Assembly: GCF_900105015.1 (NCBI RefSeq)
Contig: NZ_FNLK01000009.1
Location: 1 to 20,295, forward strand
Origin: Schaalia meyeri
Lineage (GTDB): Bacteria > Actinomycetota > Actinomycetes > Actinomycetales > Actinomycetaceae
DNA: 20,295 nt
Direction of reading: 5' to 3'
The translations under genes and the position numbers were made by a program. This document shows positions 8,018-11,394 of this stretch, one piece after another. The first letter of the stretch is position 1. Each line of letters begins with the position of its first letter. The notes under the pieces were generated by a model. It had not been told where the DNA came from, ran no database searches, and worked only from the letters and a program-made list of their open reading frames with translations.

Positions 8018-8956
8018 ATGACGAACGCCGGACGATTCGCACCCTCCCCCACGGGCGACTTTCACCTGGGCAATCTGCGCACCGCGATCCTCGCGTGGGC
8101 GTGGGCACGCACGACCCGGCGGCGCTTTGTCCTGCGCATCGAAGACATCGACCGCGCCCGCGCCGGGTCCGCCGACCGCCAGATCGCGGACCTTGAGGCC
8201 ATCGGCATCGACTGGGACGGACAGCCCCTCATCCAGACCACGCGCGCCGACGCGCACGAGGCGGCGCTGGCCGATCTGGCGCGGCGCGGCCTCGTCTTCG
8301 AGTGCTACTGCTCGCGGCGCGACATCCGCGAGGCCGCTTCCGCCCCGCACGTCCCGCCCGGCCACTATCCGGGCACCTGCCTGAATCTCAACGAGGAAGA
8401 ACGCCACGTCAGGCGCGAGGCCCTGGCCGCCGTCGGCCGCGCACCCGCCCTGCGGCTGGCTGCCCCCTCCCGCACGTGGACCGTCACCGATGAACTCCAC
8501 GGCACCTACACGGGGCCCGTCGACCACTTCGTCGTCCGGCGCTCCGACGGCGTGCCGGCCTACAACCTGGCTGCCGTGGTCGACGACGCGTTCCAGGGCG
8601 TTGATCAGGTCGTGCGGGGATTCGACCTGCTCTCTCAGGCGCCCGCGCAGGCGCAGCTCGCGCACCTGCTGGGCGCGCCCACGCCGACGTACGCGCACGT
8701 GCCCCTCGCGCTGGCTCCCTCGGGCGCTCGCCTGGCGAAGCGCGACGGCCCGGTCACGCTGGCCGATCTGCGAGGCCTGGGCTGGTGTGCCCCCGACGCC
8801 GTTGCCTTCATCGGCGAATCTCTGGGCGTGTCGGGCGCCCGGCGCGCCAGCGACATCGCGGACTCCCTGGGGATCGACGGTCTGCGGGCGCTGCCCACCG
8901 ACCCGTGGGTGGTGACGCCGCCCACCGGGCAGGCCGCCGCTTACCCGCTCCGCTAG
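8018..8956 (+). CDS. gluQ: tRNA glutamyl-Q(34) synthetase (GluQRS/YadB)
   Basis: A truncated GluRS catalytic domain: GRFAPSPTGDFHLGN (HIGH region), RIEDID, YNLAAVVDD, VVRGFDL, and LAKRDG in place of KMSKS. It has no anticodon-binding domain. It aligns by eye with E. coli YadB. Confidence 0.92.
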   Translation: MTNAGRFAPSPTGDFHLGNLRTAILAWAWARTTRRRFVLRIEDIDRARAGSADRQIADLEAIGIDWDGQPLIQTTRADAHEAALADLARRGLVFECYCSRRDIREAASAPHVPPGHYPGTCLNLNEEERHVRREALAAVGRAPALRLAAPSRTWTVTDELHGTYTGPVDHFVVRRSDGVPAYNLAAVVDDAFQGVDQVVRGFDLLSQAPAQAQLAHLLGAPTPTYAHVPLALAPSGARLAKRDGPVTLADLRGLGWCAPDAVAFIGESLGVSGARRASDIADSLGIDGLRALPTDPWVVTPPTGQAAAYPLR

Positions 8957-8980
8957 AACACGCTGGTGCGGCGGGCATCA

Positions 8981-9130
8981 GCCTTGGCCTCGCCCCGCGC
9001 GCCGGCCTCGCCGCGGGCACGCTCACGGCGACGCGAAACCCGCACCGGCCCTGCTCGGAGACAACTCCCATAATCGGGGGTTTTTCGGACCGCCGGGGCG
9101 ACTCCGGTTTCAATCCGGAGAGTCGCATCA
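8981..9130. repeat. Mosaic intergenic repeat, copy A (direct repeat of 9798-10027)
   Basis: Hand alignment to copy B shares the blocks cggcctcgcc.cgggcac.ctcacggcga.gcgaaacccgcaccggccc, tgctcgg..acaactccc..aat.g.gggtttttcgg.ccgccggggcg.ctc.ggtttcaatcc. It contains the imperfect hairpin gcgactccgg-tttcaa-tccggagagtcgc. Confidence 0.8.
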
Positions 9131-9313
9131 AGGTTATGGGGCGGGCTTGTACGCTGACGGGACTGCCCACGTCCGCCTGAGCGGGTTAGCGCGCGCCTTA
9201 CCGTGTTCACGCGCACCCCAGCGGATGCGGGTTAAGCGCAATCACCTAACAACAGGCTGTCTAGCCCGCGCAAGCCACCAGGGCGAGAACGCGCAGCACA
9301 CGCGAGCCCCGCA

Positions 9314-9435
9314 CCTGGATAGGAAACAGCCTCCTGGATAGGAAACGGCCACCTGGATAGGAAACGGCCACCTGGATAGGTTAATAACCTATCCACGAGC
9401 GCATAACCTATCCAGCAACACACTTCCTATCCATG
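9314..9435. repeat. Dyad-symmetric iteron-like array: four forward CCTGGATAGG sites and three reverse CCTATCCA(g/c)(g/c) sites, all at 19-bp spacing
   Basis: Forward copies are at 9314, 9333, 9352 and 9371. Reverse copies are at 9388, 9407 and 9426. The centre is the palindrome GGATAGGTTA-A-TAACCTATCC (9374-9394), the only AT-rich spot nearby. Forward units are near-identical 19-mers (CCTGGATAGGAAACGGCCA). The reverse arm conserves only the core. Confidence 0.9.
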
Positions 9436-9667
9436 AACCAGCCACAAAAAGGCAGCGGAGCACCAGCAGCGGAGTCGGACCACTGCAAGGTTGACGGTGC
9501 CGCGAAAAACGGCGCACAACCCCGGCCAGCACGCGGCACCTGATCCCACGCGGACCGACAGCGAAGACAACGACTACACCCAGGAGAAATCCAGCAGCAG
9601 ACCACGAGCCCGAACGGGCCGACACCCGCGGGCACCACAACGCGCACACCCCAGGAACCTCCCCACA

Positions 9668-9705
9668 CCACCAAACCACCAAACCACAAAGCCACAAAGC
9701 CACCC
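9668..9705. repeat. Short tandem 8-mer repeat (CCACCAAA x2, CCACAAAG x2, CCACCC) inside a T-depleted CA-rich stretch
   Basis: Read directly from the sequence: ccaccaaa ccaccaaa ccacaaag ccacaaag ccaccc. Confidence 0.85.
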
Positions 9706-9797
9706 TTCCAACAACACGCGGCGTCCTATAAACCACTTTCCCACGCCAACAAGACGAACACTCACGGCCAAACCAACACGATCCGCCCTATAACCCG

Positions 9798-10027
9798 GCC
9801 TTGCCCCGTGCGCACCGGCCTCGCCTCGGGCACACTCACGGCGAGGCGAAACCCGCACCGGCCCAGCATGGCCGCGCGCACGCATGTTTGAAACCCGCAT
9901 CGCACCTGCTCGGGCACAACTCCCGCAATTGAGGGTTTTTCGGCCCGCCGGGGCGGCTCTGGTTTCAATCCGCCACACGGGAGCCAATACCGGGGCGACT
10001 CCGGTTTCATCTGAAAGCGCCGCATCC
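9798..10027. repeat. Mosaic intergenic repeat, copy B (direct repeat of 8981-9130 with two internal ~42-nt duplications)
   Basis: It has the same blocks as copy A in the same order and orientation. There is an extra 42 nt at 9865-9906 that re-uses gaaacccgca. The module ggggcgRctcYggtttca occurs twice (9950 and 9992). Confidence 0.8.
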
Positions 10028-10049
10028 CGCCATGGAAAGCGACACGGGA

Positions 10050-10078
10050 AACGAAAAGGCACCCCCGCAGGGGTGCCT
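10050..10078 (-). terminator. Intrinsic terminator downstream of tRNA-Arg
   Basis: The minus strand reads AGGCACCCC-TGCG-GGGGTGCCT followed by TTTTCGTTT. This is a 9-bp perfect GC-rich stem about 50 nt past the tRNA 3' end. Confidence 0.75.
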
Positions 10079-10127
10079 CAGAAAATGCAGAGCCCCCGCC
10101 GGTGGATCGCACCGAGGGGGGCCGCTG

Positions 10128-10200
10128 CGCGCCCGAAGGGACTCGAACCCCCAACCTTCTGAACCGTAATCAGATGCTCTATCCATTGAGCTACGGGCGC
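10128..10200 (-). tRNA. tRNA-Arg (anticodon ACG)
   Basis: Hand-folded cloverleaf: acceptor GCGCCCG/CGGGCGC, D arm GCTC-AATGGATA-GAGC, anticodon arm TCTGA-TTACGGT-TCAGA (anticodon ACG), T arm GGGGG-TTCGAGT-CCCTT. Length 73 nt. CCA is not encoded. Confidence 0.95.
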
Positions 10201-10542
10201 AACGCCGTTTGGCTGGATACAAGCTTACACGCTCCGTATCAAGATACAAAATCAGATCGCGTGACCTGAAGCACTCAGAAGAAGTGCGTCCCGTACCCGA
10301 CCAGAATCGAACAGCACATACACAGCACATACAAAGATCCTCCGCGCACCCGGCAGCGCACCCTTATCCTTGCTGCATTCCTGCCCTGGGGAGGTTCGGA
10401 TGATACCGTCACGCGGAGGACCGGCCCCCAGCATACACGTTTTCCTCCCGCCCGCGCACACCGGCTCCATCGTCGGGCCCCTGGCGGCATCCGCGTCGCC
10501 ACCCACCCGCACGCCCCTGCCCGCCGAACCGCACCCACGCCC

Positions 10543-11300: not shown

Positions 11301-11309
11301 CACTGGCTG

Positions 11310-11394
11310 CGGAGGATGGGGGATTCGAACCCCCGAGGGCTTGCACCCAACACGCTTTCCAAGCGTGCGCCATAGGCCACTAGGCGAATCCTCC
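11310..11394 (-). tRNA. tRNA-Ser (anticodon GGA), long variable arm
   Basis: Hand-folded: acceptor GGAGGAT/ATCCTCC, anticodon arm CACGC-TTGGAAA-GCGTG (GGA), long variable arm TTGGGTGCAAGCCCTC, T arm GGGGG-TTCGAAT-CCCCC. Length 85 nt. Confidence 0.95.

Follow-up and report, generated by a model that had tools for sequence, protein, structure and literature searches.

The first 20,295 bases of the Schaalia meyeri contig NZ_FNLK01000009.1 (the whole stretch analysed here, hereafter the window) carry, in a non-coding spacer, a dyad-symmetric array of seven short sites phased at 19 bp. Almost certainly, this array belongs, as a solo copy, to a family of dispersed repeats specific to one clade, the Schaalia/Pauljensenia group of oral Actinomycetaceae. 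One family of nuclease genes is embedded among phased arrays, and the chances are even that the window array is a solo copy recognised in trans by a Vsr/DUF559-like endonuclease, its candidate partner, in a system resembling that of REP sequences and RAYT proteins.

Seven phased sites and their repeat family

An exact search of the 20,295 bases places TGGATAGG on the forward strand at 9316, 9335, 9354 and 9373 and on the reverse strand at 9388, 9407 and 9426, with 19 bp between successive sites throughout; all seven sites (four forward, three reverse) are confined to 9316-9433, compared with a chance expectation of 0.22 for the window and a maximum of 2 over 100 shuffles. The search thus reproduces the seven repeats, the exact 19-bp phasing and the mirror symmetry about position 9384 described in an initial annotation of this DNA; the forward coordinates given there (9314, 9333, 9352 and 9371) are right as starts of CCTGGATAGG but not of TGGATAGG, which begins at 9316 and onward. 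That annotation also described the forward arm as a repeat of the whole 19-mer, which holds for units 2 and 3 (identical as 19-mers) but not for unit 1, which deviates at a few positions, and the reverse arm as a conserved core among unrelated spacers, which agrees with the comparison of units: R1 and R2 have ATAACCTATCCA in common and R3 only CCTATCCA, the common stretch being only 8-12 bases. The array has a G+C content of 50%, versus 67% across the window, and its sole AT-rich stretch is the 7-bp centre. Six of the seven units belong to subtype 2 (YCTGGATAGGWWA) of the family described below, from whose logo the 14-bp register of the sites is taken; all seven were located by exact search.

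9313..9436, no strand: whole dyad array of four forward and three reverse 19-bp units, a solo copy of the GGATAGG-type family
9313..9326, + strand: forward site F1, ACCTGGATAGGAAA
9332..9345, + strand: forward site F2, TCCTGGATAGGAAA
9351..9364, + strand: forward site F3, ACCTGGATAGGAAA
9370..9383, + strand: forward site F4, ACCTGGATAGGTTA, left half of the central palindrome
9374..9394, no strand: central 21-bp palindrome GGATAGGTTA-A-TAACCTATCC, centre at 9384, the best conserved part in every family member
9385..9398, - strand: reverse site R1, TAACCTATCCACGA as read on the + strand
9404..9417, - strand: reverse site R2, TAACCTATCCAGCA as read on the + strand
9423..9436, - strand: reverse site R3, CTTCCTATCCATGA as read on the + strand

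Scanning one genome per species with the pattern GGATAGSTTANTAACCTATCC, we found the central palindrome in at least 116 genome stretches, almost all of them from Schaalia, Pauljensenia or oral and gut 'Actinomyces'; among the matches listed, family loci come from about 25 Actinomycetaceae assemblies. This breadth does not support the earlier suggestion of a one-off operator. Copy numbers from the scan are lower bounds: at least 11 arrays were counted in Actinomyces sp. HPA0247 and at least 9 in Schaalia sp. ORNL0103, spread over megabase contigs. Genomic loci retrieved for comparison are designated by L-numbers. In each of 130 arrays the palindrome is preceded by forward units and followed by reverse units; 3+3 is the most frequent form (58 arrays), with a range of 2-8 units per arm and 4-11 units per array. 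A logo of 784 units shows a conserved asymmetric 14-bp site, A-T-(C/G)-(C/T)-GGATAGG-T-T-A, followed by five poorly conserved bases. Conservation declines from the two central units through the inner to the outermost ones, and no base beyond position -5 is conserved; therefore, the element stops with its last site. In most arrays all or nearly all units are of a single subtype (subtype 1, ATCCGGATAGGTTA; subtype 2, TTCTGGATAGGWWA), and both subtypes are found together in one genome. The sequence GGATAGGTTA occurs 455 times in 837 kb of retrieved loci, always within arrays and never isolated. No description of these arrays was found in the full-text literature searched.

The neighbours of the arrays are ordinary housekeeping genes of about 84 families, and many loci are common to several species. 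Collapsing orthologues leaves 45 unique loci, of which 25 lie between tandem, 14 between convergent and 6 between divergent genes; the depletion from divergent spacers (6/80, p = 5e-5 before collapsing) weakens to 6/45 (p = 0.045) once orthologous loci are collapsed. The polarity of the asymmetric centre bears no relation to that of the flanking genes (18 co-oriented, 14 anti-oriented). At one orthologous locus other than that of the window, the array is kept in seven assemblies with 2-5 forward and 2-4 reverse units, and across the family the cores and their phasing persist while the spacer DNA around them is replaced completely. Unit number changes fast through tandem gain and loss. Thus the doubt voiced in the initial annotation, that the array might be noise resembling a variable-number tandem repeat (VNTR), is justified for the number of units but not for the architecture, both arms and the centre being conserved family-wide. 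The arrays resemble MIRU and BOX elements in being intergenic and dispersed, with a variable number of short modules that differ between strains in the manner of VNTRs; however, MIRU are direct tandem repeats of 40-100 bp and BOX elements consist of A, B and C modules that form RNA hairpins, whereas the arrays have 19-bp units in two inverted arms about an invariant palindrome.

Some loci have doubtful labels: arrays and neighbourhoods in six loci labelled 'Sanguibacter keddieii 250_SKED' (L026, L029, L042, L107, L114, L130) and five labelled 'Xylanimonas cellulosilytica 352_XCEL' (L054, L069, L085, L099, L105) are orthologous to those of Schaalia/Pauljensenia, and both organism labels are probably wrong, to judge by this orthology.

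The 19-bp phasing and the stacked direct and inverted sites had raised the possibility of an orphan plasmid-type iteron origin, parC/parS centromere or clt transfer locus. The iterons of plasmids P1 and F are 19 bp long, and these origins and parC centromeres share with the arrays contiguous stacks of 19-20-bp sites, one inverted copy, a conserved core and free spacer sequence. Unlike an iteron origin, which is one locus per replicon, the arrays are present in many copies per chromosome (see HPA0247 and ORNL0103 above) and form two mirror-image arms rather than one direct array, with a 7-bp AT-rich centre only in place of an AT-rich unwinding element and DnaA boxes. The partition ATPase and centromere-binding protein genes that adjoin the single site or operon of parC/parS contrast with the housekeeping neighbours of the arrays; the 8-bp TRS repeats of the clt/TraB system lie beside tra genes and have a different motif; and not one rep, par or tra gene is among the 182 neighbour proteins of the 130 arrays. 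The search of plasmid and phage collections proposed in the initial annotation yielded no BLASTN match to the spacer or the consensus array among 72,556 plasmids and 50,697 phages, and the matches in 'viral' contigs are host DNA beside prophages. With at least 116 loci of this kind, an origin, centromere or transfer locus is scarcely credible.

The viral contigs had been scanned for two cores 19 bp apart, and several of high G+C content show the same layout. Their arrays were rejected as phage operators or origins: they lie in host DNA past the integrase ends, beside Atl-like and CoA-disulfide-reductase host genes. In three such 'viral' contigs an integrase is 1.5-2 kb from the array. Two viral contigs with a G+C content of 0.48 (L001 8920-9200; L004 4490-4770) hold 11 TGGATAGG motifs in both orientations within about 280 bp; this cluster may be an origin or operator cluster of an unrelated, lower-G+C phage-like source, with the 8-mer in common by chance.

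Protein site, hairpin or mobile element

Within an array, forward spacers are 47.7% identical to the reverse complement of their mirror spacers, versus 49.5% between unrelated arrays; there is no excess of arm-to-arm spacer identity, so that complementarity between the arms stems only from the site consensus they share. Neighbouring units within one arm are more alike (61% identical), so units arise by local tandem duplication. Because spacer complementarity is absent, GGATAGGTTA never occurs alone, target-site duplications are lacking and the plasmid and phage collections have no match, recognition by a protein is predicted: selection probably acts on a putative protein recognition site, not on a pairing partner. 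The two spacer values and the asymmetry of the 14-bp site favour the DNA-binding-protein site that the initial annotation preferred to a hairpin, and its expectation of a binding partner encoded elsewhere agrees with the lack of a candidate gene in the window.

A transcribed RNA or single-stranded DNA hairpin, such as a bidirectional terminator or a precursor of a small RNA, would draw on the ability of the dyad to fold (-24.7 kcal/mol as DNA, z = -4.4) and on the many copies located between convergent genes or downstream of genes. However, pairing in the window copy is confined to the cores, separated by 11 x 11-nt internal loops; complementarity between the arms of one array is no higher than between arrays; the commonest centre of the family, GGATAGC...CCTATCC, has a fixed mismatch; there is no Rfam match; and the stems are AT-rich with no U-tract after them. 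We consider a hairpin function very improbable.

Among known protein sites, the 19-bp operator of DtxR/IdeR (TTAGGTTAGSCTAACCTAA) has a half-site, TAGGTTA / TAACCTA, identical to the inner part of the array palindrome. The half-sites of DtxR/IdeR are 3 bp apart, whereas those of the array are 1 bp apart and belong to a conserved site that extends outward (ATSYGGA); stacked units are not known for DtxR; and DtxR/IdeR operators lie upstream of iron-regulated genes, whereas array neighbours are unrelated to iron. One Corynebacterium glutamicum DtxR site contains GGATAGGTTA (PMC1382209). Resemblances of the array unit to the DnaA box and to DtxR, NarL and IHF sites were all discarded, since spacing or key positions do not fit.

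The array might instead be a non-autonomous element resembling a MITE (a miniature transposable element with inverted repeats), or a site-specific recombination site of stacked transposase or recombinase sites, such as those that make up the ends of Tn402/Tn5053, IS21 and Tn7 and the resolution site of Tn4430, with the palindrome taken as a GGATAGG-TTAATAA-CCTATCC crossover core. The centre is indeed readable as 7-bp inverted repeats about a 7-bp AT-rich spacer; the family is multi-copy and differs in presence or absence between relatives; array-bounded segments differ between genomes (L061 versus L125, L119 versus L037); and the arrays lie in spacers crowded with other MITE-like repeats. The 19-bp repeats of Tn402/Tn5053, the multiple terminal repeats of IS21, the IRS of Tn4430 and FRT likewise have one motif of about 19-20 bp in direct and inverted orientation, with an inverted pair around an AT-rich spacer. 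In contrast to such site stacks, the arrays have no element body between their arms and no associated transposase or recombinase gene, the only traces being two sporadic insertion sequence (IS) fragments among the 182 neighbour proteins. In contrast to MITEs, they lack target-site duplications (no excess of direct repeats of 3-9 bp at any offset from 0 to 9 in 126 arrays), a defined length (4-11 units) and a related autonomous IS (none with array-type ends in 964 kb). Paralogous copies share no spacers, so there was no recent burst, and dozens of active recombination sites would destabilise a genome. A mobile element or recombination site is accordingly improbable, if less so than a hairpin.

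The MITE-like palindromic repeats that crowd the same spacers include GGGGGYTTTGCAC...GTGCAAAACCCCC, AATTTCGCACGTAATTCCCC...GGGAATTACGTGCGA and GTTACAAACGTCGTCAA...TTGACGACGTTTGTAAC; they are located at L134 4405-4500, L099 6555-6645, L049 6990-6860 and 6750-6640 (minus strand) and L102 5760-5880, and downstream of the array in L077 and L100. The 3' ends of tRNA and transfer-messenger RNA (tmRNA) genes are the usual landing zone of integrative elements, and four arrays were noted 90-750 bp downstream of such an end (L126 6076-6639, L081 5105-5583, L110 4892-5374 and window 9313-10200). A general association with tRNA genes or attachment sites was rejected: some arrays do follow tRNA or tmRNA genes at a distance of 0.1-1 kb downstream, but the majority do not.

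A candidate nuclease partner

Several genomes contain, downstream of sigH-rshA, a gene for a protein of about 350 amino acids (aa) with GGATAGG arrays on both flanks; at the corresponding empty site (L037; Actinomyces sp. HPA0247), a single array lies between flanks that are 85-96% identical. Arrays beside the P0122-type gene are of mixed subtypes. Three orthologues at 59-61% identity (L067, L070 and the S. meyeri-like L189) have on their flanks arrays of subtype 2, to which the window copy also belongs, and a paralogue in L063 begins 250 bp from a subtype-2 array. Members of the same gene family in other lineages are accompanied by arrays with other cores.

L119 5065-6123: candidate nuclease gene, flanked by direct repeats of about 300 bp, each composed of array, spacer and array
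L142 and L140: core GCATTGACAC, phasing 19 bp, 350-650 bp upstream of the candidate gene
L143: core GGGAGCATTACACC, phasing 19 bp, upstream of the candidate gene
L143: core ATTCAACCT, phasing 19 bp, downstream of the candidate gene
L185: core CGTCGGTAGG, phasing 20 bp, both sides of the candidate gene (dyad)
L186 and L188: other repeats, mainly tandem, 16-19 bp, upstream and downstream in L186, upstream in L188

A phased repeat array is present within 300 bp of the gene in 7 of 9 lineages, compared with 19 of 244 control intergenic windows (lenient detector; the arrays of L142 and L140 fall outside the 300-bp flanks). By a strict detector, there are only 6 non-GGATAGG arrays in 964 kb. The candidate protein family, which comprises 1474 representative clusters, has an invariant motif D...ExDG..K; UniRef names some members 'DUF559 domain-containing', and some sources give members the name 'endonuclease domain-containing' protein. 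The candidate scores 16-21 bits against the Pfam models DUF559 and REase_MTES_1575, below their cut-offs of 38.2 and 20.6, and a protein profile searched against PDB, NCBIfam and PADLOC gave nothing usable except a weak AbiEi-like stretch. In a fold search with its AlphaFold model, a confident one (pLDDT 82), matches to the C-terminal domain were Vsr and the homing endonuclease I-Bth0305I, the latter in its catalytic domain (probability 0.95-0.96, E > 0.1).

From these observations we propose that each unit is recognised by a sequence-specific protein that oligomerises, of which a dimer would occupy the central palindrome and further protomers would extend outward along each arm in 19-bp steps. 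The recognising protein may be the candidate Vsr/DUF559-like PD-(D/E)xK endonuclease of about 350 aa. One or a few nuclease genes would then reside within repeats of their own, and the solo arrays, numbering in the dozens and including that of the window, would be recognised in trans; binding, perhaps with nicking followed by repair, would keep the arrays homogeneous and occasionally seed new ones. Such an arrangement would parallel that of REP/REPIN with RAYT. To the identity of the DUF559-like endonuclease as this particular partner, a candidate drawn from gene neighbourhood and fold, we give close to even odds, if anything slightly under.

REP/BIME and REPIN-RAYT are the closest analogue. 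With them as with the arrays, a chromosome holds dozens of short repeats in intergenic DNA, for the most part not at divergent promoters, which form inverted pairs or clusters, persist at syntenic sites, depend on lineage in sequence and are associated with a single or low-copy nuclease gene flanked by repeats. However, REP/REPIN sequences are imperfect palindromes with a 5' GTAG that fold into hairpins, whereas the arrays consist of asymmetric 14-bp sites at 16-20-bp phasing, with no selection for a hairpin and with a varying number of units per arm; and RAYT proteins have the HUH Y1 transposase fold, whereas the candidate has a Vsr/DUF559-type PD-(D/E)xK fold, which limits the likeness to analogy. 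The arrays are a new variant among interspersed bacterial repeats with an associated nuclease, and are not members of the REP/REPIN-RAYT family. The homing-type target of I-Bth0305I is long and pseudo-palindromic, and the presumed target of the candidate is likewise long, symmetric and multi-protomer; in a further likeness, the candidate gene is present in some genomes and absent from others. The likeness is confined to the nuclease domain, and the candidate gene, unlike that of I-Bth0305I, does not interrupt its array: it has intact arrays on both sides, and there are many solo targets.

Several observations weigh against a nuclease partner. The protein lacks a recognised DNA-binding domain in its N-terminal half. 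The gene has arrays with different cores on its two sides in L143 and L186; in L140 and L142 the array is 350-650 bp upstream rather than adjoining; and L187, with only two direct units at a contig end, is essentially negative. HPA0247 has at least 11 arrays yet an empty site at the sigH locus (that locus only). Different array families gather in shared repeat-rich intergenic islands, as they do in L134 and L099, so the adjacency of gene and array could be passive. The core GTGGWGGGGTT of L138 was not accepted as a dispersed family, a metagenome scan having returned the same single locus only, plus unrelated tandem repeats.

It is worth weighing whether the arrays are multimeric platforms with a chromosomal function for an unrelated host DNA-binding protein, for example one that organises the nucleoid, insulates or acts as a roadblock, with the DUF559-like genes merely co-located. 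Their persistence at syntenic positions across species as the flanking spacer DNA diverges, the conserved cores of old units with unrelated spacers, the distribution of copies over the whole chromosome and the mild depletion from divergent promoter regions (see above) all favour a platform, and the lack of isolated sites fits obligate cooperative binding. A platform is harder to reconcile with the unstable number of units and with the absence of the array from the orthologous spacer of a close relative, which shows that single copies are dispensable; no candidate host protein emerged; and the arrays of matching geometry and lineage-specific core that flank nuclease genes in several lineages would be left unexplained. 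We regard a host-protein platform as unlikely, though the strongest of the competing explanations, and the nuclease as the better candidate.

Dyad arrays of 19-20-bp units with other cores (GGGAGCATTACACC, AGGTTGAAT, GCATTGACAC, CGTCGGTAGG and GTGGWGGGGTT) are located at L083 321-390, L124 7523-7601, L143 1907-1977 and 3287-3335, L034 6947-7011, L142 2345-2472, L185 1820-1880 and 3140-3260, and L138 4918-5213. These differing cores suggest a superfamily of phased arrays in genomes of the Schaalia/Actinomyces type. A broader and more tentative proposal, which we hold to be rather doubtful, is a repeat-and-nuclease partnership of the Actinomycetaceae that would resemble REPIN-RAYT on a different fold: each member of the nuclease family would recognise its own lineage-specific, dyad-symmetric stack of sites phased at 16-20 bp, sit among copies of it, and maintain or spread dozens of solo arrays, that of the window among them.

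REP/RAYT systems are so far mainly proteobacterial and built on HUH enzymes. If correct, the proposed partnership would be a second, independently evolved association of repeat and nuclease, in Gram-positive high-G+C oral bacteria and on a Vsr-like fold; it would assign a function to some members of the DUF559-like family, which is large and uncharacterised. In Schaalia, which serves as model host for the Saccharibacteria epibiont TM7x, it would account for a large share of the hypervariable DNA between genes, and strains could be typed with the VNTR markers that it would supply ready-made. Should the link to this protein fail, the 14-bp site and its strict 19-bp phasing predict a new, highly specific, oligomerising DNA-binding protein.

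The DUF559-like family genes also have a motif of their own upstream. One or two copies of TYATCCACAGG, which includes the consensus DnaA box TTATCCACA / TTGTCCACA, were noted about 40-160 bp before the called start of every such gene examined (L119 4970-5015, L140 2915-2955, L143 2075-2120, L185 at about 1905-1950, L186 at about 1450 and L188 at about 555), L187 having only a degenerate CTCTCCACAGG in its place. The motif is kept across lineages with differing flanking arrays and is absent from the window.

The hypervariable spacer around the array

The array of the window occupies a spacer between a gene of the GluQRS type and a run of RNA genes.

8018-8956, + strand: GluQRS gene, one flank of the array spacer
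8957..10126, no strand: non-coding spacer hosting the array, hypervariable, 1170 bp, from the GluQRS stop to the 3' end of tRNA-Arg(ACG); content not conserved among related species
10127-10200, - strand: tRNA-Arg(ACG), other flank of the array spacer
10330-10425, - strand: signal recognition particle (SRP) RNA, in the RNA-gene run beyond the spacer
11309-11394, - strand: tRNA-Ser(GGA), in the same run

The remaining genes of the window include a YbaK-like editing protein, CrcB, an NlpA lipoprotein, parts of ATP-binding cassette (ABC) transporters and a permease. No open reading frame in 8957-10126 has the third-position G+C (GC3) signature of coding sequence, and rep, par, tra, integrase and obvious regulator genes are all absent from the window annotation, in accord with the gene-free setting and the lack of such genes beside the array stated in the initial annotation. 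Rfam models gave only chance-level miRNA matches (E > 1) over the window array and none at nine related array loci. Searches for sigma-70-like promoter sites found none, the sole terminator-like match inside the array is trivial, and the window has no DnaA-box-like motif; no effect of the window array on neighbouring genes was detectable.

Comparison with relatives indicates how readily this locus turns over. In Actinomyces sp. HPA0247, whose genes are about 83% identical, the orthologous spacer has an array of 3 forward and up to 6 reverse units in which every array spacer differs, and the remainder cannot be aligned with the window. In a closer relative (GluQRS 89% identical), the orthologous spacer contains no array, its length being taken up by another kind of repeat; any single copy can therefore be dispensed with. 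In a species at 75% identity (L138), the orthologous spacer has a 19-bp-phased dyad array with the core GTGGWGGGGTT.

In more distant Schaalia, gluQRS is followed by a gene for a conserved protein of 123-124 aa with no Pfam match (L137 4634-5005, L138 5327-5698, L139 4488-4862), which is missing from the window; it was rejected as a partner of the arrays, with which it has no link. The stretch of the window that holds the array is bracketed by a direct repeat of about 70 bp (8984-9055 and 9800-9868, about 90% identical), resembling part of a repeat of about 130 bp (GTGAAACCCAGACCACCCC ... TTTTCGGAAGACAAGGG..GGTTTCA), several tandem copies of which fill the orthologous spacer in L136 (4540-5440). 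Between the array and the second copy, 9440-9800 is strongly A+C-rich on the + strand, with a GC skew down to -0.38 and no coding signal, and CAACACG..CCTATAACC occurs twice (9712-9734 and 9774-9796), with a similar motif in the corresponding position in L049 and L138.

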